Shown here: positions 6,551-53,075 of the stretch, one piece after another
Layout of the letters: every line of letters starts with the position of its first letter
How positions within the stretch are numbered: the first letter of the stretch is position 1
DNA from: Pseudomonadota bacterium
GTDB taxonomy: Bacteria; Pseudomonadota; Alphaproteobacteria; Rhizobiales; Aestuariivirgaceae
Direction: 5' to 3'
Assembly: GCA_049323275.1 (NCBI GenBank)
Contig: JBMOOM010000058.1
Location: forward strand, 11,177-75,176
DNA: 64,000 bases
The notes under the pieces: model-generated
Database searches by the model: none
What the model saw: the letters and a program-made list of their open reading frames with translations, nothing else
Told to the model about the DNA's origin: nothing
Position numbers and translations under genes: made by a program

Positions 6551-7921
6551 GTGGCGGACGACGAGAACAGCCTGACCGGACGTCTGCTCCGCTACGCCAA
6601 TGTCGGAACGGGTGTCGGCAGTGCCGTTGCGCGCATCGCCGCCGGAAGGCTGCTCGGCGGCGAGCGCGGAACATCGGCGGAAGGCCAGCTTCTCGCCGAG
6701 GCGCTGGGCAATCTCAAAGGCCCGCTGATGAAGGTGGCGCAGTTGCTCGCCACCATTCCCGACGCATTGCCGGCGGCTTACGCGGCCGAGCTGGCGCAGC
6801 TCCAGTCGCAGGCGCCCGCCATGGGCTGGGCCTTCGTCAAGCGACGCATGGCGGCCGAGCTCGGTCCCGACTGGCGCAAGTCCTTCGCCGATTTCTCGCA
6901 CGAGGCGGCGCATGCGGCGTCGCTCGGCCAGGTGCATCGCGCCTCATCGCATGACGGCCGGCCGCTCGCCTGCAAGCTGCAATATCCCGACATGGATTCG
7001 GCGGTCGAGGCCGATCTCAAGCAGCTCAACATCATCTTCGCACTGCATCGGCGCATGTCGCCGGCGATCGATACGAGCGAGATCGGCGAGGAGATCGCGG
7101 CGCGCTTGCGCGAGGAGCTCGATTATGTGCGCGAGGCGAAGCATATCCGCCTCTATACGGAAATCCTCAAAGGCCATCCGGCGATCCACGTGCCGGCGGT
7201 CGAGCCGCAGCTGTCGACGCGCCGGCTCATCACCATGGGCTGGCTCGAAGGGCGCCGGCTGCTCGAGTTCAAGGAGCATGATCTCGACACGCGCAATCTG
7301 CTCGCCCGCAATCTTTTCGCGGCCTGGTGGACGCCGTTCTGCGGCCATGGCGTGATCCATGGCGATCCGCATCTCGGCAACTACTCGGCGTCGCTCGACG
7401 AGACCGGCAGGCCCAACGGCCTCAATCTCCTCGACTATGGCTGCATCCGCATCTTCCCGCCGCGCTTCGTCGAGGGCGTCGTCGATCTCTATCACGGGCT
7501 CCGCGCCGACGACCGCGCCCGCATCGTGCATGCCTATGAGACCTGGGGCTTCCAGAATCTCAGCAACGAATTGATCGACATCCTCAATATCTGGGCGCGC
7601 TTCATCTACGGCCCCCTGATGGAAGACCGGGTGCGCGCCATCGCCGACGGCGTATCGCCGGCGGAATATGGCCGCCGCCAGGCTTTCACCGTGCATCGGG
7701 CGCTGAAGGAGAAGGGGCCGGTCAAGGTGCCGCGCGAATTCGTGTTCATGGACCGCGCCGCGATCGGGCTCGGCGGGGTGTTCATTCATCTCCGCGCCGA
7801 GCTCAATTTCTACCGGCTGTTCAACGAGGCGCTGGAAGGCTTCAGCGTCGATGGCGTGGCGGCGCGCCAAGCGGCGGCGCTCGGGGCGGCCGAGCTTATT
7901 TCCAGTTCCCCATCAGGATGA
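6551..7921 (+). CDS. ABC1/AarF/UbiB family atypical protein kinase
   Basis: AASLGQVHRA, ACKLQYP, EELDY, HGDPHLGN and LDYG motifs. Confidence 0.92.
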   Translation: MADDENSLTGRLLRYANVGTGVGSAVARIAAGRLLGGERGTSAEGQLLAEALGNLKGPLMKVAQLLATIPDALPAAYAAELAQLQSQAPAMGWAFVKRRMAAELGPDWRKSFADFSHEAAHAASLGQVHRASSHDGRPLACKLQYPDMDSAVEADLKQLNIIFALHRRMSPAIDTSEIGEEIAARLREELDYVREAKHIRLYTEILKGHPAIHVPAVEPQLSTRRLITMGWLEGRRLLEFKEHDLDTRNLLARNLFAAWWTPFCGHGVIHGDPHLGNYSASLDETGRPNGLNLLDYGCIRIFPPRFVEGVVDLYHGLRADDRARIVHAYETWGFQNLSNELIDILNIWARFIYGPLMEDRVRAIADGVSPAEYGRRQAFTVHRALKEKGPVKVPREFVFMDRAAIGLGGVFIHLRAELNFYRLFNEALEGFSVDGVAARQAAALGAAELISSSPSG

Positions 7922-10859
7922 AGGCGGCCCAGTAATAGGGATGTGCGGTAGCGGCTGTGTCTGTCGTCCCGCCAGAGTCTTCGATGACTGTCATGGCACG
8001 GCTGGCGAGAGTAGTAGACTCCCGGTGGCCGCGCAGCAGCTCGAGTTGGGCGCGCCGCAAGGCGTGAGCCTTATCGAGGCCTTGTCTGATCAGCCCGTCA
8101 TAGAAATCCGTCATCAGTGTAGCGGTGGAGTCGTCGGCGATCTGCCATAGCGTCGAAAGGACGGCGGAGGCGCCCTTGGCCTGCGCCAGCATGCCGAGGC
8201 TCTCGATCTCCTCGCCCTCGGCGCCGCCGCCAAGCGCAGTCTCACAAGCTGACAGTGTGAGGAGCTCGGTTCCCCGAAAGCGAAATCTTTTCTGGGTCCG
8301 CAATTGGTTGAGGGTCAGGCCGTTGCCATCGCCGAGAAGTAGATAGGAATTGGTTTCGTTGCCGGGTCGGAAGCGGAAGTGACTGGCGATATGAAGTATC
8401 TGGGTCTCCGACGATAGTGTCCGCGCCAGGCTTTTCGCAGTGAATGCATCATCGAGCTTGGGCGTGCCGCCGACAACACCAATGACGGCGGCGAGTTCGC
8501 GCGCGGCGCCGGGCAGCGCCGCGAAGCCAGGATGCTCCCGTGTCACGCCGAAGCCCGCGCCGTTGAGCTTGCCGCGGCGCATCGCGGTGAATTTCGTGCG
8601 ATTGGCCGGATTGTAGAGTGCCAGCGCGAAATCCTCGATGAGATACCGCTTGCCGTCGTGAAGCGCCGCGTAGGGGACGTAGCGCAGGAAGCCGGACAGA
8701 TCGAGGAGCAGGACTGGCGCAACCGCGTCGCCGCGCATGACGGCCTCATCGAGGTCGGGGCGCACCGGCTTGATGAGTTGATCATAGAGGCCGGCGAGTT
8801 GGCCCTTCGCGTCATCGCGCCGGCTCTTGACGGCGTCAATGGCCGTGAAGACCAGTCTGGCGAGTTCCGGACGGCTGATCGGCACCTTGCGCCGGATCGT
8901 CTCGTGGCCGGCCTTGCTCACGAAGAAATAAAGTCCGTCCTCGAGGCTTATGATCTGGAGGAGAATGGTGTCGGGGCCCATGCTGCGGAGATCGGCCTCG
9001 ATCCGCTGGGCGTAACGCTGTCCGGATTCGAACTTCGCCTTTCGCGCCAGGAGATTTGCGGATTCAAAGCGACCGATGAGGCTGCGGGTTGCTGAGAGGA
9101 AGGCGCGCACCGCCTGATCTCGCCTGAGTTTCAGGGTCTGCTGCCGGGACCGATATTCGTCCTCCGATATTCCCGCCGCCTCGCGTGTGGCCATCGACTC
9201 CCTGATCTCGGCGGCAATCTGGAAGACAGGGGTCATGGCGGACCGTATGTCGGCCTGAAGTTTCTCCTCGGCCGCTGTGAGGCGGACATTGCCTGGTTCG
9301 ATATCGGGATCTGCCGGCGACCGGCCGGTGCCATTTTGTGTGAATTCGTAGAATTCCTGTTGCTTGAGCAGGCCGCCGACGAACTGTGCCTCGGAGTATT
9401 GGCCGTCTTCGAGCAGCAGTTCCGAGAGCAGAAGATAGGAAGGCTGAAAGCTCTGACCGAGCTTGGCGCGTAACATGTCCGACAGATTTCCGTTGCGGGC
9501 GCGGACGTCCTGATGTGCATTGACGGCCTGCTTGGCGAAAAAGACGGCGCTCGCCCGGGCGCCTCTGGCCCTCGAAGCGCGTGCCAGCATCCGATACGTA
9601 TAGCGCTGATTGTCGACATCCGCGCTGCTGGCGCCCGTCTGGATGAGCAATGCCTGCAGGCCGTCGTCGAGCGCCGCATCGTAGCGATGGAGTTTGCGCG
9701 ATGTGTTGCCGATGCGGGCGAGCATGGTGGCGGCCTCGGGGTGATCGGGCCCATAGGTATCGACGATGATCTTGAACGCTCTCCGGTAGTTCGTCAGGGC
9801 GTCCTCATGCTCTCCGAGATCGTCGTCCACATTGCCGAGATTGATGAGGGGATGCATCATCTCAACCTGATCGGGTCCGTAGTGGCTTTCCAAGATTTCC
9901 GCCGCGGCGCGATACTCCGCGCGTGCCGCGTCGTAGCGCTGCAGACCTTGATAGGCGAGGCCCAGTATGCTGCGCGTCGCCGCCACTGTGCGCGGGTCCG
10001 GAGACGCGGCCTTGGCGTAAAGCGCGAGAGCGGACTGCGCCGCTTCGGCCGCATCCTGGTTCTGTCCCAAGAGGTTGTAGGTGCGGCTCCTGGTCTTCAG
10101 GACATCGGCGATCTTTGCGGATGCGGGATCGCCCAGCCCGACATAGACGGCTTGGGCCCGATCGAGCGCTGCGAGCGCTTCGCCATAGCGGGCAAGGCTT
10201 ATGAGGCTGATCGCCTCGTTCTGATAGAGATTGCCGATGAGCTCGTTGTCGCGTCCCATGAGCTGGACAATGATCGCAACGGCTTTCTCGGTGGCGGCAA
10301 GCGATTCCTCCTGGCGGCCCGCGCCGGCGAGCCCATTTGCGAGATTCATATAGGCCCCGGCGACCTGCGGGTGGTTCTGCCTCAACTTGCGCTCGAAGAT
10401 GCGACGGGCGGCGTCATAGGCGACAATCGCTTCCTCGAAGCGACCGAGCTTCTCATAGGTGAAGCCGAGCTGCGACTGGATGTTGGCTTCGAGAAAATCC
10501 GCTCTGCCGCTCTTGCGCGCGAGGCCCAGGGCAATGTCGGCGAGGCGCAAGGCTTTGTTGAGATCGCCGGGCCTGCCTCTCTCCCTGAGAGCGAAGCTCA
10601 GCAGGTAGATCGCATTGGGATCCTTGGTTTGGGCGAGAGGGGCGAACAGGCTGATGGCCATGTCGACATCCCGCTCGACCCCGTTGCCGTCCAGATAGGC
10701 CTCGCCGAGCGCGATCATCGCTCCCGGATCGCCGGCTTGGGCGCGGTGGGTAAGGAAAAGTATATCCGGCGGTGCGGGATTTTGCGCCCGGCAAAGATCC
10801 GCAAAGCCCGGAAGTGCCAGGAGAAACACCAGCCAAAGGACAAGCAGTCGCCGTTGCAT
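7896..10859 (-). CDS. Secreted Sel1/TPR-repeat protein with C-terminal CHAT (caspase-like) domain
   Basis: Likely start MQRRLLVLWLVFLLALPGFA (signal peptide); Sel1 repeat AMIALGEAYLDGNGVERD; many TPRs; CHAT catalytic motifs LHIASHF and LTLSACET; C-terminal HPYYWAAFILMG. Confidence 0.88.
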   Translation of the reverse strand: MQRRLLVLWLVFLLALPGFADLCRAQNPAPPDILFLTHRAQAGDPGAMIALGEAYLDGNGVERDVDMAISLFAPLAQTKDPNAIYLLSFALRERGRPGDLNKALRLADIALGLARKSGRADFLEANIQSQLGFTYEKLGRFEEAIVAYDAARRIFERKLRQNHPQVAGAYMNLANGLAGAGRQEESLAATEKAVAIIVQLMGRDNELIGNLYQNEAISLISLARYGEALAALDRAQAVYVGLGDPASAKIADVLKTRSRTYNLLGQNQDAAEAAQSALALYAKAASPDPRTVAATRSILGLAYQGLQRYDAARAEYRAAAEILESHYGPDQVEMMHPLINLGNVDDDLGEHEDALTNYRRAFKIIVDTYGPDHPEAATMLARIGNTSRKLHRYDAALDDGLQALLIQTGASSADVDNQRYTYRMLARASRARGARASAVFFAKQAVNAHQDVRARNGNLSDMLRAKLGQSFQPSYLLLSELLLEDGQYSEAQFVGGLLKQQEFYEFTQNGTGRSPADPDIEPGNVRLTAAEEKLQADIRSAMTPVFQIAAEIRESMATREAAGISEDEYRSRQQTLKLRRDQAVRAFLSATRSLIGRFESANLLARKAKFESGQRYAQRIEADLRSMGPDTILLQIISLEDGLYFFVSKAGHETIRRKVPISRPELARLVFTAIDAVKSRRDDAKGQLAGLYDQLIKPVRPDLDEAVMRGDAVAPVLLLDLSGFLRYVPYAALHDGKRYLIEDFALALYNPANRTKFTAMRRGKLNGAGFGVTREHPGFAALPGAARELAAVIGVVGGTPKLDDAFTAKSLARTLSSETQILHIASHFRFRPGNETNSYLLLGDGNGLTLNQLRTQKRFRFRGTELLTLSACETALGGGAEGEEIESLGMLAQAKGASAVLSTLWQIADDSTATLMTDFYDGLIRQGLDKAHALRRAQLELLRGHRESTTLASRAMTVIEDSGGTTDTAATAHPYYWAAFILMGNWK

Positions 10860-11023
10860 GCGCCGTCCGGACAGGGAAACGATGAGGATATTGCCCTTCC
10901 TTTGCGGGATTTTGAAGGCGACCGTGGGACTCATCGCCGCGCCGGGCCTCAGTTCTTGCGGCGGGTAAGGCTCTAGGCTAGGTAAGTCTCCTCAGATTCC
11001 AAGGTTTTGAGGGGATTTCCGAC

Positions 11024-22120: not shown

Positions 22121-22191
22121 AACCTGCGTCATTTTCGGGCACTATCCACAGAAAACGGCCCGGTGCTCTGGTGATGAGCAAATCGCGGGCC

Positions 22192-22219
22192 AAAAAAAAG
22201 CCGCGCAAAAGCGCGGCTT
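22192..22219 (-). terminator. Intrinsic terminator on the minus strand
   Basis: 9-bp stem (22198-22206/22211-22219) plus 8 A on the plus strand. Confidence 0.85.
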
Positions 22220-22330
22220 AAAAGGTTCTAACAGGGAGGCGTCAAACAGAGTGGACAGGAGCCACTCGGAGAATCCAGATGACTGGATTACATTGATGAA
22301 AATACAACCGAATCCCTTACTGATTGGTTA
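22192..22330 (-). ncRNA. Probable trans-acting sRNA between DUF1192 and rcdA (possibly BjrC1505 family)
   Basis: ORF-free gap; strong minus-strand terminator AAGCCGCGC-TTTT-GCGCGGCTT followed by a U-run; preceded by CU-rich CUCCUGUCCACUCUGUUUGACGCCUCCCUG. The 5' end is approximate and the family name is from recall. Confidence 0.55.
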
Positions 22331-22371
22331 ACGATACGGTTGCTTAACGCAAAAAGAGTCTGAACGCCGTC

Positions 22372-38934: not shown

Positions 38935-38938
<4 letters not shown>

Positions 38939-39144
38939 GCGATGATATCCGGGATCAGCTTGTCCTCGACCTTCTGGATCTCGTCCTTGATCTGCAGCTT
39001 CATCTTCTTGAGCCGGCGCAATTGCAGCTGGTCGCCGGCGCCAGACGCCTCGAGCGACGAAATGGCGGCATCCAGGTCGCGATGTTGCTGGCGCAGCGTC
39101 ATGAGCCTCGTCTGCAGAAGATTCTCTTCGGTCCCATCGATCAT
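38935..39144 (-). CDS. DUF465/YdcH family protein
   Basis: [12 protein letters not shown]...[14 protein letters not shown]. Confidence 0.88.
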
Positions 39145-39261
39145 CCGGCGCCTACCCCAGTTTGCGCACCGATTTTTTCCACACTCCCTATGCCCTTGCA
39201 CGGGGTTCGACAAGACCCCAAGTCTGTGTCACACTCATATGGTCAATCACAGGAGGCTTTG

Positions 39262-39438
39262 ATGAGCGTTCAGGCGCATCTCGGTGAACTGGCGGCAAAA
39301 CATAAGGCTCTGGAAGCGGAGCTCGAGGACGTGATGTCCCACCCCGCTTCGACGGACGCCGAAATTGCCGAGCTGAAGCGCAGGAAACTCCGAATCAAAG
39401 ACGAAATATCCAAGCTGGCCGACCAGATCAGGCACTAG
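39262..39438 (+). CDS. DUF465/YdcH family protein
   Basis: AGGAGG RBS; LAAKHKALEAEL...ELKRRKLRIKDEI. Confidence 0.88.
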   Translation: MSVQAHLGELAAKHKALEAELEDVMSHPASTDAEIAELKRRKLRIKDEISKLADQIRH

Positions 39439-40690: not shown

Positions 40691-41764
40691 TTATGGTTGC
40701 CTGCCGTGCCGGCGCAGCGTCTCGGCGCGCGAGCCGAGATAGTGGTAGATCATGTTGACCGCCATCTTGGCGCTGATCTGGCTCGAATCGAAATACGGAC
40801 AGAGCTCGACGACATCGAGAATGTCGCAGCCATACTGGCCGGCGATACGGGCGAACAGGATCGCCTCGCGGCCCTTGAGGCCGTAGCATTCGGGCGACGT
40901 CGAGCCCGGCATGCAGCTCATGTCGATGGAGTCGGTGTCCCAGGTGAAATAAAGCGTGTCGGCATCCTTCTTCACGCGCTCGAAGACCTCGCGCGCGCAC
41001 GCCTCGAGGCCACGCTCGACGACCTCGGGCATGGCGACGACGCGGATCTCGTTGTCGACATAGAAGTCCCACCAGTCCTTAGGGTTCAGGCCGTTGCGCG
41101 AGCCCAGATGCGCCATGTTGCGGGCCGAGACATTGGGCAGATCGAGGGCGCGCGGCGCGCCCGAGCAGTTGGTGATGGGATTGCCGGCCCAGTCGGGGCC
41201 GGCATCGAGATGGCTGTCGACATGGAGGTAGCCCATACGGCCGGCGCCGGTGTAGCGCGACAGCGCCTTGGCGCCGGGGATCGGCAGTGAGTGATCGCCG
41301 CCGAACAGGATGACCTTGGCGCCGCCCTCCAGGCATTCGGTGACGTAATCGGTGGTGTAGTCCTGCGACCTGGCATTGTTGCCCGGCACATTCGGCACAT
41401 CGCCGCAGTCGACGACACGAAAGAAGCTCAACAGGTCGACGTCATATTCGAACATGTAGGGAAAATACTGCGTCGTCGCCTCGCGCAATGCCGAAGCGCC
41501 TTGCGAGGTGCCGGCGCGGACGATCTGGCCCTGGTCCCAGGGGACGGCGAGAAAGCAGATCTTGGCGCCCATCGCGCGGATCTTGTGGCGGTCGGGCGGG
41601 CAATAGGGCGCGCCCATGAAGGTGGCGAGGCCGCGCGACTTGAAGGCGCCATTATGCAGTTTGGGCGAATAGATATGGTCGAGCGGGCCGTGCTGCTCAG
41701 CCGGACCTTGATGCTGATGCGGCGTGAAGCGCCATGGGGTGGTCTCCGATCTCTCCTCTCGCAT
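40691..41764 (-). CDS. Ureohydrolase alpha subunit, catalytic; probable dimethylguanidine hydrolase (MfmA-like)
   Basis: Intact ligands H158 (GGDH), D183/H185/D187 (HVDSHLD), D276/D278 (WDTDSID); TNCSG at 198-202; loop PGSTSPE at 286-292. Confidence 0.82.
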   Translation of the reverse strand: MREERSETTPWRFTPHQHQGPAEQHGPLDHIYSPKLHNGAFKSRGLATFMGAPYCPPDRHKIRAMGAKICFLAVPWDQGQIVRAGTSQGASALREATTQYFPYMFEYDVDLLSFFRVVDCGDVPNVPGNNARSQDYTTDYVTECLEGGAKVILFGGDHSLPIPGAKALSRYTGAGRMGYLHVDSHLDAGPDWAGNPITNCSGAPRALDLPNVSARNMAHLGSRNGLNPKDWWDFYVDNEIRVVAMPEVVERGLEACAREVFERVKKDADTLYFTWDTDSIDMSCMPGSTSPECYGLKGREAILFARIAGQYGCDILDVVELCPYFDSSQISAKMAVNMIYHYLGSRAETLRRHGRQP

Positions 41765-42140
41765 AGGCTTCCTCCTCGAACGGTTCTTGTGACGGCGTAG
41801 TTTCGATCTCGATGTCGACCAGCTCCAATTCGCGCCCGCTCAGCACCTGGCGCGACGGCCGGCCGCAATCCGGGCAGCGCAGATTGGCGAGCGAGCGGGG
41901 CGTCTTTTCCCCTTTGCAGGCGGCGCAGAACAGCGTGAGCGGAATCTCCTCGATATGCAGCCTGGCGCCCTCGCACAGCGTGCCGCGGGTCGCGGGGCCG
42001 AAGCAGAAATAGAGCGAACGCGCGATGCCGCGCATGGCGCCGAGACGGACAAACATCCGGGTGACGCGTCCGGCGCCCTGTTTTTCCGCGTGGTCGCAGG
42101 CGATGGCGATGAGGCTCGCGGCGATGGTCAGCTCATGCAT
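41697..42140 (-). CDS. hypA: Nickel metallochaperone HypA
   Basis: MHELTIA N-terminal Ni motif; CAAC...CPDC zinc finger; SGRELEL. Confidence 0.92.
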   Translation of the reverse strand: MHELTIAASLIAIACDHAEKQGAGRVTRMFVRLGAMRGIARSLYFCFGPATRGTLCEGARLHIEEIPLTLFCAACKGEKTPRSLANLRCPDCGRPSRQVLSGRELELVDIEIETTPSQEPFEEEAYARGEIGDHPMALHAASASRSG

Positions 42141-42981
42141 GGTGATGATGCTCGCCGGCCGCATGCTGGCGGGCATGGCCGATCCAATGGAGCCAGTCCG
42201 CCATGCCTTGACCGTCGCGCGCCGACAGGACGATCGCCTCGATATCGGGATTGATGTCGCGGGCGCGCGCGATGCAGGCTGCAATGTCGAAGTCGCAATG
42301 GGGCGCAAGATCGGCCTTGGAGATGAGCAGCAGGTCGGCGACGGCGAAGGCTTCCGGATATTTGACGGGCTTGTCGTCGCCTTCCGTCACCGAGAGGATG
42401 ACGACCTTGTGGGCCTCGCCCAGGTCGAAGCCGGCCGGGCAGGCGAGGTTGCCGACATTCTCGATGAAGAGCACGCCGCCGGCCTCGAGCGCCAGGCCGG
42501 AAAGCGCCTGATCGATCATGTCGGCATCGAGATGGCAGCCCTTGCCGGTATTGATCTGCACTGCCTCTGTGCCGGTGGCGCGGATGCGCTCGGCGTCGTT
42601 GGACGTCTCCTGGTCGCCCTCTATCACCCAGGTGGGGAAGGCGCTGCCGAGGCGCCGCAAGGTCTCGACCAGCAAGGTCGTCTTGCCGGCGCCGGGACTG
42701 GCGATGAGATTGAGGGCCAGGATCGAGCGCATCGCGAGCTTGCGGCGCACGCCGTCGGCATGAAAGTCGTTCTTCGCCAGGATCTCGCGCTCGATCTGGA
42801 CCAGGCGCGTCTGGTTCATGCCGGGAACGCTCACTTTGGCGATGTCGCGGCCGAAATGCAGATTCTGGTGAAGGGGATGATTGCGATCGTGGGCCTGATC
42901 ATGCTGATGATGCGCCAGGGGACCGGCGCCCCTGCCGTCGATGCGCTTATCGCTGGGACCGCAACCGCAGATCTGGCACAT
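42133..42981 (-). CDS. hypB: Nickel-insertion GTPase HypB
   Basis: MCQICGC, His-rich linker, SPGAGKTT, NTGKGCHLDA, ENVGNLACP, EGDDKP; C-terminal EHHHHA. Confidence 0.95.
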   Translation of the reverse strand: MCQICGCGPSDKRIDGRGAGPLAHHQHDQAHDRNHPLHQNLHFGRDIAKVSVPGMNQTRLVQIEREILAKNDFHADGVRRKLAMRSILALNLIASPGAGKTTLLVETLRRLGSAFPTWVIEGDQETSNDAERIRATGTEAVQINTGKGCHLDADMIDQALSGLALEAGGVLFIENVGNLACPAGFDLGEAHKVVILSVTEGDDKPVKYPEAFAVADLLLISKADLAPHCDFDIAACIARARDINPDIEAIVLSARDGQGMADWLHWIGHARQHAAGEHHHHA

Positions 42982-43000: not shown

Positions 43001-43684
43001 TCATCTCCCGGCGGATTTAGTCCCGCCCGCATAATGCAAGAGCCGCCAGATGACGGTTTTGAGCGTCTTCATCGCATCGGGAATCGGCGCGCCATTCGGC
43101 ATGAAGCTGCCGAAGTAGATGCCGTCGATATTGCGCGAGATGAAGGCGGCCATCTCTTCCGCGTCGGGGCAGGTGAAGAGGCCCGCGGCCTGTCCCTTGC
43201 GAATGCAATCGGCCAGGATCTTCTTCTCGGTTTCGTAGAAGTCCTCGACGAAGCTGTCGATGAATTTCGGTCCGCCGTCATCGGCATGACCGACATTGAC
43301 GAACATGATGCGCACCACGCTGCGCAGCGTTTCCGACATCTCGACATTGAGATCGAGATAGGCGTCGAGCCGCGCGACCGGACTGTCATGGCGCGTGAGC
43401 ACGGCGCCGTAATTGGTCATCAGCCGGTCGAGCGCGTGCAGCACCGAGGACTGATAGAGAATATCCTTGCTCTTGAAATAATAATAGATCAGCGAATGCG
43501 CCACGCCGAGCTTCTTGGCGACGAGCGGAATGGTGACCTTCCTGTAGTCCTCTTCGGCGAAGCATTTGAGCGCAGCCTCGAGCAGCGAGTCGGCGCGCGC
43601 GCCCGGATTCCGATAGAGCCGGTTCTTGGCGCGCTTCACCGATTTCACGCGGTCTGCGAGGTGGCTGAGGGCCAGGGATTCCAT
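43001..43684 (-). CDS. TetR/AcrR family regulator leading the hydrolase operon
   Basis: LLEAALKCFAEEDYRKVTIPLVAKKLGVAHSLIYYYFKSKDIL; start uncertain. Confidence 0.9.
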   Translation of the reverse strand: MESLALSHLADRVKSVKRAKNRLYRNPGARADSLLEAALKCFAEEDYRKVTIPLVAKKLGVAHSLIYYYFKSKDILYQSSVLHALDRLMTNYGAVLTRHDSPVARLDAYLDLNVEMSETLRSVVRIMFVNVGHADDGGPKFIDSFVEDFYETEKKILADCIRKGQAAGLFTCPDAEEMAAFISRNIDGIYFGSFMPNGAPIPDAMKTLKTVIWRLLHYAGGTKSAGR

Positions 43685-43700: not shown

Positions 43701-43869
43701 TTGACAGTTGTTTCAAGATAATCTGCACATGCTTTGACAGTTGTGTCAATTCACATTTAAGGCCTGGCCCTTCGTTTGATCCATATTTTATTGATACATT
43801 TACGCAGGAGTTGGAATTTTTCCGGTCGTCAAACTTTTTGGCGACAAATGATTTGACAAATATGTCAAA
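43701..43869. promoter_or_regulatory. Three TTGACA-N4-TGTCAA-type operator palindromes in the divergent promoter
   Basis: 43701-43716 (TTGACAGTTGTTTCAA, one mismatch), 43734-43749 (perfect), 43852-43869 (TTTGACAAATATGTCAAA, perfect). Confidence 0.8.
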
Positions 43870-43985
43870 GTACATCAGCCTGATCGTGAGATCGCTCGTC
43901 CTGGCTGCAGAATTCATGGCGAAGACCATGCCGGACAGGTTTTCGAGCCGCTCACGCGTTCATTCAATCTTTGGAGGAGGATGGA

Positions 43986-44177
43986 ATGAGTATCTCTGCG
44001 CTGACCGACAACAGTGAAATCCGCCAGGAGCTCGATCGCAGGCTGGCGATCCTGGATGACCCCGCCTACAGCGATCCGGCGCGCGCCGACATATCGGGCC
44101 GCGAGATCGCGATCTGGTTCGCCATCGCGGCGGCGATCACCGCCGTGGCGCTTCTCTTGCGCGGCTGGGGCGCGTGA
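43986..44177 (+). CDS. Small single-TM membrane protein upstream of the permease
   Basis: GGAGGAGG RBS; 63 aa with a C-terminal hydrophobic helix; stop overlaps the permease ATG (TGATG). Confidence 0.75.
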   Translation: MSISALTDNSEIRQELDRRLAILDDPAYSDPARADISGREIAIWFAIAAAITAVALLLRGWGA

Positions 44178-45598
44178 TGGCGGTGCAGTCCCAGAAGATC
44201 ACCGGCGCCAGTGCCGCTTTCGGCACGCTGCCGGTCCTGAGAGAGGAACGCGAGCTCGGCTTCCTCGATCATTCCTGGATCAATATCGGCCTCGCGATCG
44301 CCACCTGGGCGTTCCTCCTCGGCGGCAGCACGGCGTTGGTGGTCGGCGCCCATGACGGCATCTATGCCATCGTCATCGGGAATGTGATCGGCGTCGCCAT
44401 CATGGCGGCGAGCGTGTGCATCTCGACCGGCAAATACGGGATCGAGCAGTTCACCTTGCTGCGCTCGGTCTTCGGGCCGCTCGGCATATTGATCCTGGTG
44501 GGCCTGTTTCTCGCCGTCTATGGCGTCGGCTGGTCGTCGATCCTGTCGATCATGTTCGGGCGCGCGCTGAGCGGCGTGTTCAACCAGGCCGGTGGAACCC
44601 GGATCGGCGAGAACGATCTCGGCGTGTCGCTGCTGGCGCTGGTGGCCATCGCGATCTCGTGGCTCCTGCTGTGGCGCGGGCCGACCGCGGTCAAGTGGCT
44701 CAACCGTTTCGTCGGGCCCGGCAAGCTCGTTCTGTGCGTCGGCACGCTGTTCCTGATCTTCGGCGCAAAGAGCTGGAGCGACATCGCCAGCGCGCCGCCG
44801 CTCGCACCCTTCGAGGATCCGCGGGTGAATTTCATGATCGCGGTCGAGTTCAATCTCGCCGCCGGCTTCGGCTGGTGGCCGATACTGGGCAATATCTCCC
44901 GCTTCACGCGGACACCGCGCGCGGCTTTATGGCCCAATTTGATCGGCGTGTTCGCCGCCGCCGTGCTCGGCGAGCTGGTCGGGCTGTTCGCCGCGCTGAG
45001 CCTCGGCTCGCATGATCCGACCGCCTGGATGATTCCGCTCGGCGGCATGGTCGCGGGCGTCGCGGCGCTGCTCTTCATCGGGCTCGCCAACATCACGGCG
45101 ATCGTCAGCATCTTCTATGGCATGTGCCTCGCCATGCGGCAGGCGGGCGGGCGCCATCTCGAAGCCGTCTCCTGGGGGCTGCTCACCGGCGTGCTGTTCG
45201 TGCCCGTCGCGGTGATGGCCTTCTTTCCGGGGCAGATCTACGATAATTTCTTCAAGTTCCTGGCCTGGACGGCGCTCGGCTTCGCGCCGCTCTCCGGCGT
45301 CACCGCGGTGGACTATCTGGTCCTCAGGCGCGGGCGGATCCGGCAGAGCGACGTCTATAGCGACGCCCCGACCTCGGATTATGCCTTCTGGCGCGGCATC
45401 AATCCGGCCGCCTTCCTCGCCATCGCGATCGGCGGGATCGTCTATTATCTGCTGTTCGATCCGCTGTCGCTCGCGACCCATGGCCTGTTCATCTGGCTCA
45501 GCGCGTCGGTGCCCGCCTGCTTCATCGCCGGGCTCTCCTACTACCTGCTGACCAGGGCGCTCATCATCCCCGCCAGGCTCGGCGGTTATGAGCGCTGA
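44177..45598 (+). CDS. NCS1 (cytosine/purine permease, CodB-like) transporter
   Basis: About 12 TM helices; IATWAFLLGG, GKYGIEQFTLLRSVFG, GWWPILGNISRF, VDYLVLRR, WRGINPAA. Confidence 0.87.
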   Translation: MAVQSQKITGASAAFGTLPVLREERELGFLDHSWINIGLAIATWAFLLGGSTALVVGAHDGIYAIVIGNVIGVAIMAASVCISTGKYGIEQFTLLRSVFGPLGILILVGLFLAVYGVGWSSILSIMFGRALSGVFNQAGGTRIGENDLGVSLLALVAIAISWLLLWRGPTAVKWLNRFVGPGKLVLCVGTLFLIFGAKSWSDIASAPPLAPFEDPRVNFMIAVEFNLAAGFGWWPILGNISRFTRTPRAALWPNLIGVFAAAVLGELVGLFAALSLGSHDPTAWMIPLGGMVAGVAALLFIGLANITAIVSIFYGMCLAMRQAGGRHLEAVSWGLLTGVLFVPVAVMAFFPGQIYDNFFKFLAWTALGFAPLSGVTAVDYLVLRRGRIRQSDVYSDAPTSDYAFWRGINPAAFLAIAIGGIVYYLLFDPLSLATHGLFIWLSASVPACFIAGLSYYLLTRALIIPARLGGYER

Positions 45599-45630
45599 CC
45601 ACACTCCCCGCCCTATGGGCAAACTGACGA

Positions 45631-45659
45631 GAGCGCCGGTCCTGTATGGGCCGGCGCTC
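45631..45659. terminator. Hairpin between the convergent permease and cupin genes
   Basis: GAGCGCCGGTCC / GGGCCGGCGCTC. Confidence 0.6.
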
Positions 45660-45670
45660 CGCTTCTTCAT

Positions 45671-46186
45671 CTAAGCTTTGCCGCGCAGGCGGTCGGGCAG
45701 GCCGTCATGCGGACCCAGCGGCCGCGGCGGGTCGATCTTCCAGTGACGGTCGCCGATCTCCTCGTTGCGCTTGGGATGCATCGGATAGTGGATGCGGCTG
45801 CGCATGCGCGACGCCTCGCCGACCACCAGGATGCGGACATCCTGCTCGGTATTGTTGATGATCGTGTGGGCAAGGCCGGTGCCGGCCGGGAAGGAGACGC
45901 CGTCGCCGGGCTTCAGCCGCTTGAGGTGGCCGTCGGCCCACAAATCGGGCTCACCCTCGAGCACGAAGACGAACTCGTCCTCATCGGCCTCGGCATGCGG
46001 CCAGGAGACGCGCCGTCCGGGCTGCAGCCTTTCATGATGGATGCCGAGGCGCATGAGCCCATGCGTCTCGCTGAAGGAGGCGCCGATCGACAAGAGCTCG
46101 TCGGAGCCTCGGTAGTGATTGTCGTCCTTGCCTTCGATATCGAGCCAATGGGCGACGAAGGCGGAAAAATCGATGGGGCCGGTCAT
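45671..46186 (-). CDS. Cupin domain protein
   Basis: LGIHHERLQPGRRVSWPHAEADEDEFVFVLEG...FPAGTGLAHTIIN. Confidence 0.88.
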   Translation of the reverse strand: MTGPIDFSAFVAHWLDIEGKDDNHYRGSDELLSIGASFSETHGLMRLGIHHERLQPGRRVSWPHAEADEDEFVFVLEGEPDLWADGHLKRLKPGDGVSFPAGTGLAHTIINNTEQDVRILVVGEASRMRSRIHYPMHPKRNEEIGDRHWKIDPPRPLGPHDGLPDRLRGKA

Positions 46187-52913: not shown

Positions 52914-53075
52914 TCGGCGAGCTGCCCGGTGCGTGAGGAGATCTTTTCCCTGGGGCCTATACGATTCTCGCGGGAGCTGTCCCTAGGCTTGGCCGTGGCC
53001 TTGCCCACATGGCGCCCACCTACACTTGTAGGTACCCGGGATCGTCATTCTCCCACGGCCATGGCGGCCCGCCAC
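52914..53075 (+). ncRNA. ssrS: 6S RNA
   Basis: Directly upstream of ygfA. Motifs CCCTGGGGCC, GGGAGCTGTCCCT, CACATGGCGCCCACCTAC, GTAGG..CCGGGATC; 5' GGCGAGCTGCC pairs with 3' GGCGGCCCGCC. Ends approximate. Confidence 0.85.

Follow-up and report, generated by a model that had tools for sequence, protein, structure and literature searches.

A probable dimethylguanidine hydrolase gene cluster in the chromosomal core of a bacterial lineage that is sister to the Aminobacter clade

Results

Gene organization of the locus

The window, by which we mean the whole 64-kb stretch of DNA that was analysed, contains a string of five genes in the order tetR-hypB-hypA-alpha-beta together with a divergently oriented gene for an NCS1-family permease (Table 1), an arrangement collinear with that of the Aminobacter loci and of the Pseudomonas mendocina metformin plasmid pMET-2. 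Among the loci recovered, nine are of Aminobacter type (L001-L009), from Aminobacter, Mesorhizobium sp. CC13 and Pseudaminobacter; L008 is the locus of Aminobacter niigataensis DSM 7050. The closest genome was a metagenome-assembled genome (MAG) labelled Parvibaculaceae (L015), the alpha subunit of which is 95% identical to that of the window; the conserved-context look-up was made with P0125, which is 97% identical to the window alpha subunit.

The alpha gene is the sole ORF of its interval and runs from an ATG start to a TAA stop, with a Shine-Dalgarno sequence, GAGGAGGA, 5 nt 5' of the start; its database annotation is agmatinase or arginase family protein only. The beta gene, which has an AGGAGG ribosome-binding site, starts 20 nt past the alpha stop. 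The genes hypA and hypB lie directly upstream of alpha in the same orientation, and the 3' end of hypA overlaps the start of alpha by 68 nt (41697-41764) in another reading frame. Syntenic orthologues of the tetR gene are found in L001-L009, in L015 and on pMET-2.

Table 1. Features of the cluster and of the surrounding window
Feature	Position	Strand	Basis or remark
Predicted DmgH-alpha, catalytic di-nickel-binding ureohydrolase subunit, 357 aa	40691..41764	-	Ligands, homology, dN/dS
DmgH-type substrate loop MPGSTSPECYG (first residue 285)	40880-40912	-	Direct count
Codons TCG ACG TCG (S288-T289-S290)	40895..40903	-	Published determinant (PMC11399263)
Metal motif HVDSHLD (residues 181-187)	41204..41224	-	MefH has Cys at 184
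S184 codon AGC	41213-41215	-	
Predicted DmgH-beta, degenerate metal-free partner, 348 aa	39624..40670	-	Homology to MefH-beta
hypA, nickel metallochaperone, 147 aa	41697..42140	-	TIGR00100, 90.2 bits, above cut-off
hypB, nickel-insertion GTPase	42133..42981	-	TIGR00073, 265 bits
TetR-family regulator, first gene of the tetR-hypB-hypA-alpha-beta string	43001..43684	-	Synteny
One-mismatch copy of TTGACA-N4-TGTCAA, tetR/NCS1 intergenic region	43701		
Two exact TTGACA-N4-TGTCAA palindromes, candidate TetR operators	43734-43749, 43853-43868	.	Motif conservation
63-aa small membrane ORF	43986..44177	+	Conserved upstream of permease
NCS1-family permease, presumed dimethylguanidine importer	44174..45598	+	Orthology to Aminobacter and pMET-2 permeases
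1031-aa protein, TPR repeats and C-terminal CHAT (caspase-like) domain	7896-10991	-	Housekeeping region
Alphaproteobacterial sRNA BjrC1505	22191-22338	-	Above Rfam gathering threshold
Two small DUF465 genes facing each other divergently	38935-39438		Between beta and purE; also in L082, L083
6S RNA	52916-53074	+	Above Rfam gathering threshold

The length of hypA differs among loci, being 147 aa in the window compared with 128 aa on pMET-2 and approximately 113 aa typically. The overlap with alpha is absent from the pMET-2 locus and apparently also from the Aminobacter loci, where tblastn matches extend over approximately 113 aa.

Such an overlap could reflect a lost stop codon in hypA, and the alpha gene might then be read as a decaying or non-functional copy. 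However, L015 and L082 have kept this overlap, the frames of all genes of the cluster are intact, as are all of the catalytic residues, and the ribosome-binding sites of both subunit genes are strong. Furthermore, alpha and beta are under purifying selection, since comparison with four relatives gave dN/dS values of 0.045-0.157 for alpha and of 0.035-0.157 for alpha and beta together (0.04-0.16 in round figures). We therefore regard decay of the gene as extremely improbable.

The alpha and beta subunits

Direct counting along the alpha ORF places H158, D183, H185, D187, N199, C200, D276, D278, G287, S288, T289 and S290 at these positions, so that the residues from H158 to D278, the loop MPGSTSPECYG and the motif HVDSHLD, all of which had been listed in an earlier sequence-only reading that did not give the strand, are indeed present. 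All six metal ligands (H158, D183, H185, D187, D276 and D278) are kept and N199 replaces the catalytic His of arginase. In metformin hydrolase (MefH, also MfmAB or MetCaCb; PMC11399263, PMC10927577, PMC11271267), Q80, N199, N288, S289 and E320 are the non-coordinating active-site residues of the alpha subunit, and alpha W192 together with beta Y22 and F82 surrounds the docked metformin (Li et al., 2024; PMC11271267). The window alpha subunit retains Q80, W192, N199 and E320, and its beta subunit retains Y22 and F82. The latter aligns end to end with MefH-beta (E = 3e-206), and its motifs GGDRS, HFGAHLD and NFNVMD show that four of the six metal ligands are replaced (H158R, D183G, D276N and D278N), as published for this subunit.

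Comparison with metformin hydrolase

When the alpha subunit was compared with all PDB chains by phmmer, the best matches were the metformin hydrolase alpha subunits 8X3G, 8SNF, 8SNK and 8RYI (E = 7.5e-222 to 1.9e-220), and with an E value of 7.5e-222 the match is not a chance one. The alignment contains no gaps, so that residue numbering in the window and in metformin hydrolase alpha is identical. The solved metformin hydrolase alpha subunits have N288-S289-A290 with C184, whereas the window subunit has S288-T289-S290 with S184. The metal motif HVDCHLD, which the sequence-only reading had given for metformin hydrolase, occurs in both the Aminobacter and the Pseudomonas enzymes; the loop MPANSAPECYG, given in the same reading, is that of the Aminobacter enzyme (8X3G and 8RYI, with A287), but Pseudomonas MfmA (8SNF) has MPGNSAPECYG, with G287. 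Residue 287 is consequently the only one of the four loop positions that the window shares with MfmA, positions 288-290 matching instead the alpha subunit of dimethylguanidine hydrolase (DmgH). Because G287 is also carried by Pseudomonas MfmA it is not diagnostic, and its proposed place in a loop signature preceding metformin hydrolysis, or in a specificity switch, was ruled out.

Identity of the window alpha subunit was 83.9% to Aminobacter MefH-alpha (57 differences) and 84.2% to Pseudomonas MefH-alpha (56 differences). Fourteen positions (91, 95, 138, 184, 268, 270, 282, 288, 289, 290, 301, 304, 318 and 327) were found at which both MefH-alpha sequences are alike and differ from all 11 DmgH-like sequences compared, and at none of these does the window depart from the DmgH state. 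Besides C184 and N288-S289-A290, MefH thus carries ten lineage-specific residues (A91, D95, A138, T268, S270, I282, V301, L304, I318 and P327) the corresponding residues of the window being S, E, T, A, T, M, A, F, V and S, respectively. The assignment of the loop to the type that preceded metformin hydrolase is upheld by these data, as S184 with S288-T289-S290 is the published DmgH-alpha signature (PMC11399263).

The two systems are alike in fold, metal site, the partner gene for an alpha2-beta4 assembly, nickel chaperones and gene order, with subunit identities of 84% (alpha) and 85% (beta). They differ in setting: mefH genes are near-identical and lie on plasmid segments of metformin degraders, between transposases and with a HupE/UreJ nickel transporter, whereas the window locus lies in a conserved chromosomal context without hupE.

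More distantly, the ureohydrolase fold is shared with the nickel-dependent guanidine hydrolase GdmH, which has been reported to be homomeric. PDB entries 7ESR and 7OI1, deposited as 'probable agmatinase 2', are presumably GdmH, an identification that we also take via citation in PMC11399263. GdmH differs from the window enzyme in that it is a distant match to alpha (E = 1e-38) and acts on free guanidine; its nickel dependence and its requirement for HypA/HypB are documented in work cited in PMC11399263.

Comparison with characterized dimethylguanidine hydrolases

The DmgH-alpha/beta enzyme of A. niigataensis DSM 7050 splits 1,1-dimethylguanidine into urea and dimethylamine and has undetectable activity on metformin; it depends on Ni2+, on HypA/HypB and on its beta partner (Sinn et al., 2024, Nat Commun 15:8045; PMC11399263). 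These authors identified DmgH as the evolutionary precursor of bacterial metformin hydrolase and highlighted Ser288-Thr289-Ser290 and Ser184 of DmgH-alpha against Asn288-Ser289-Ala290 and Cys184 of MefH-alpha. The window alpha subunit is 87.4% identical to that of DSM 7050 (45 substitutions) and the beta subunit 89%. The two alpha subunits have in common S184, G287-S288-T289-S290, the six Ni ligands and N199. In both loci alpha is followed immediately by a degenerate beta gene and preceded by hypA and hypB, and both include a tetR gene as well as a small ORF ahead of the divergently oriented NCS1 permease gene. The alpha subunits differ at residue 196, among others, within the W192-N199 active-site loop, where the window has P and Aminobacter has L. 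In addition, the window belongs to another host lineage, lacks a downstream urease, is flanked by purEK/rpsU and cupin-fba-pgk-tkt, and has the 147-aa hypA that overlaps alpha.

A second characterized DmgH, from Hyphomicrobium sp. SMAG_U6089 (L043), is likewise dimethylguanidine-specific and without metformin activity (PMC11399263). It is encoded by a tandem alpha/beta pair with hypAB, but its alpha subunit is only 69% identical to that of the window and has C184 and T288-T289-A290 where the window has S184 and S-T-S. The specificity of this enzyme despite its C184 and A290 indicates that these two residues are insufficient for metformin activity.

Phylogeny and ancestral states

In a neighbour-joining tree of 83 alpha subunits, the window and L015 formed the sister group of the Aminobacter clade that holds both DmgH and MefH, and the window enzyme is accordingly a cousin of the line leading to MefH rather than its direct ancestor. 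All members of the wider clade and L010-L014 have G-S-T-S with S184 or A184, the two MefH sequences excepted, and the next group outward, which includes L043, has G-T-T-A with C184. As the L008 and L043 enzymes are both characterized as DmgH, the window enzyme is bracketed by two enzymes of one specificity. C184 was present in all of the remoter relatives (n=65), among which A290 was the majority state and S289 occurred in 19, while not one of the 81 non-MefH sequences had N288. These counts point to S184 and S290 as states derived within the STS clade, to the S184C and S290A changes of MefH as reversions to what the wider family has, and to N288 as the sole residue unique to MefH.

A third large group of tandem alpha/beta ureohydrolases (L044 and L053-L080) has the loop G-T-S-C (or G-T-T-C) and C184; most members have hypA and hypB, and they derive mainly from marine, sponge-associated and other uncultured MAGs (Arenicellales, Poriferihabitaceae and Rhodospirillales).

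An alternative reading is that the wild-type protein already hydrolyses metformin, as a metformin hydrolase whose loop has diverged. Its 84% identity to MefH-alpha, the identical metal site and operon layout, and the G287 that it shares with Pseudomonas MfmA are all compatible with this. Against it, N288 is absent, as are C184, S289 and A290; DmgH with the same S184 and STS has no detectable metformin activity, and neither has a loop-swapped mutant unless S184C is added; and the gene resides in the conserved chromosomal core whereas all known mefH genes are on transposon-flanked plasmid segments. We consider metformin hydrolysis by the wild-type enzyme very unlikely; given its S184 and S288-T289-S290, no activity on this drug should be detectable.

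Divergent promoter region and permease

The palindrome TTGACA-N4-TGTCAA has only two exact copies within the 64 kb, both between tetR and the permease gene, and L001-L009 and L015 have it in the corresponding position, as one copy and two copies, respectively. The copies left on pMET-2 all have one or two mismatches. It is a candidate TetR operator, possibly degraded on the metformin plasmid. An inverted repeat, GTCAAA...TTTGAC, was dropped because relatives lack it. Scans for generic promoters and terminators did not exceed shuffle expectation, and an Rfam scan of the whole window revealed no guanidine riboswitch or other leader of the cluster, its only hits being 6S RNA and BjrC1505 at other places.

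Upstream of the permease gene lies an ORF of 63 aa that has a strong Shine-Dalgarno sequence and whose product carries a hydrophobic helix at its C-terminus. It has 50-59% identity to its counterparts in nine of nine Aminobacter-type loci (L001-L009) and is an annotated gene in L082 and L083; a Pfam search gave no family match. Its stop overlaps the start of the permease gene (GTGATGG), to which it is apparently translationally coupled, and it may encode a small accessory subunit of the permease. The pMET-2 copy has an in-frame stop.

The NCS1 permease is 82-84% identical to those of Aminobacter and 79.6% identical to that of pMET-2, a transporter of the MetT type (PMC13390362). In the metformin transporter MetT, W43 and F47 belong to the lining of the binding cavity, and replacing cavity residues by alanine lowered metformin transport (PMC13390362). 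Only W43 and F47 could be placed in the window permease, since the published numbering is offset from that of the pMET-2 orthologue past residue 47 (W117, W231 and T260 remained unplaced). The Trp corresponding to W43 is kept and a Leu (L49) is found at the position of F47, as in the DSM 7050 permease; the transporter thus also shows a difference between the DmgH and MefH types.

Comparison of the window (43758-45674) with L015 (3730-8018) showed that the small ORF and NCS1 permease of the former correspond in position to a four-gene ABC importer of polyamine type in the latter, consisting of a solute-binding protein, two permeases and an ATPase. The flanks are collinear, with 80-90% nucleotide identity over the adjoining genes. 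One importer module has thus been exchanged for another while the site has stayed the same.

Genomic context

The cluster is embedded in a conserved chromosomal core, with purE, purK, rpsU and acs on one side and a cupin gene, fba, pgk, tkt, zapA and the 6S RNA gene on the other, and the same flanks are present in L015 and L082. The 6S RNA gene shows the classic arrangement, being located just upstream of a 5-formyltetrahydrofolate cyclo-ligase gene and approximately 1.4 kb downstream of zapA. No urease genes were present among the scanned ORFs of the 64 kb (urease clustering being supportive in Aminobacter and not strictly defining), and neither hupE/ureJ nor dimethylamine-catabolic genes were found within the same 64 kb. 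The window contains no tRNAs.

Discussion

We have described the sequence features, orthology, synteny and phylogenetic position of a tandem pair of ureohydrolase-like genes, and the purifying selection acting on them, and consider it highly probable that alpha is the catalytic-subunit gene of a heteromeric, nickel-dependent dimethylguanidine hydrolase. Our working model for substrate, metal, quaternary structure and the roles of transporter and regulator draws on the characterized orthologues. By homology with the solved MefH structures (84-85% subunit identity), alpha would assemble with two metal-free beta subunits per alpha into an alpha2-beta4 hexamer, in which HypA and HypB would load two Ni2+ onto H158, D183, H185, D187, D276 and D278 so that the di-nickel centre resides in alpha only. 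The predicted reaction is the cleavage of 1,1-dimethylguanidine into urea and dimethylamine. The NCS1 permease is the likely importer of the substrate, and the TetR protein is the likely regulator, acting on the palindromes of the divergent promoter region.

Among the points that count against this assignment are the 45 substitutions that separate the window from characterized DmgH-alpha, including P196 in the active-site loop, and the absence of urease and dimethylamine-catabolic genes from the 64 kb. The same points could be taken to mean that the true substrate is another guanidine, such as a natural N,N-dialkylguanidine or other substituted guanidine, dimethylguanidine being either a laboratory proxy or not turned over at all. 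Indeed, there is no report of dimethylguanidine as a natural metabolite from biological systems (PMC11399263), so that the physiological substrate of the whole family is uncertain, and the polyamine-type ABC importer that occupies the NCS1 permease site in L015 suggests flexibility in what is imported. In Aminobacter, clustering with urease was taken as support for dimethylguanidine as the native substrate (PMC11399263). However, the bracketing relatives, at 87% and 69% identity, are both dimethylguanidine-specific, methylguanidine and the other guanidines assayed were not substrates of the characterized enzymes (PMC11399263), and the window matches DmgH at every first-shell residue that the literature names. 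A different guanidine as the true substrate is thus an unlikely alternative, and we retain dimethylguanidine as the predicted substrate.

The sequence-only reading had proposed that the enzyme would be only a few substitutions from metformin activity, and had suggested loop mutants as a check. Such mutants of Aminobacter DmgH have already been published (PMC11399263). According to the source data of that study, native DmgH turned over dimethylguanidine at ~21.8 nmol/mg/min, and the S288N, T289S, S290A and STS to NSA variants at ~2.8, ~50, ~0.76 and ~0.44 nmol/mg/min, respectively, with metformin activity not detected in any of the five. When S184C was added to the NSA loop, dimethylguanidine was hydrolysed at ~0.70 and metformin at ~0.20 nmol/mg/min, compared with ~0.41 and ~14.5 nmol/mg/min for MefH-alpha combined with DmgH-beta (PMC11399263 source data). 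In the Aminobacter background, therefore, four substitutions do confer trace activity (~0.2 nmol/mg/min), in line with part of the proposal, but this is ~1.4% of the metformin activity of the MefH-alpha enzyme (roughly 1% of the MefH level), and the single and triple mutants had gained none.

For the window enzyme itself, the idea that MefH is only a few steps away is not supported, as 57 substitutions separate it from MefH-alpha compared with 22-23 for the published precursor. Three of the four changes at the highlighted positions, S184C, T289S and S290A, would each take one nucleotide change from the window codons AGC, ACG and TCG, whereas S288N would take three from the window TCG as against two from the TCT of DSM 7050. 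We think it improbable, if conceivable, that the window lineage represents a second, independent starting point for metformin hydrolysis, through trace promiscuity or some other mutational route. On that view the physiological substrate could also be another natural dimethylguanidine-like compound, imported via the NCS1 permease and its 63-aa partner here and via the ABC system in L015.

The loop determinant, the S184C change and the mutagenesis were all published in 2024 and are hence not new. The window gene belongs to a known enzyme family, to which it adds a new orthologue from the sister lineage of Aminobacter, and it represents no new type of enzyme, mechanism or determinant. Its interest lies in the fact that DmgH is a documented precursor of metformin hydrolase, an enzyme that evolved within decades of the mass use of the drug. 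Divergent DmgH orthologues help to polarize the 22-23 substitutions between DmgH and MefH, separate reversions (C184 and A290) from novelty (N288), and make it possible to ask if the switch is tied to the Aminobacter background. To these the window adds one DmgH orthologue from a different lineage and a different genomic context.
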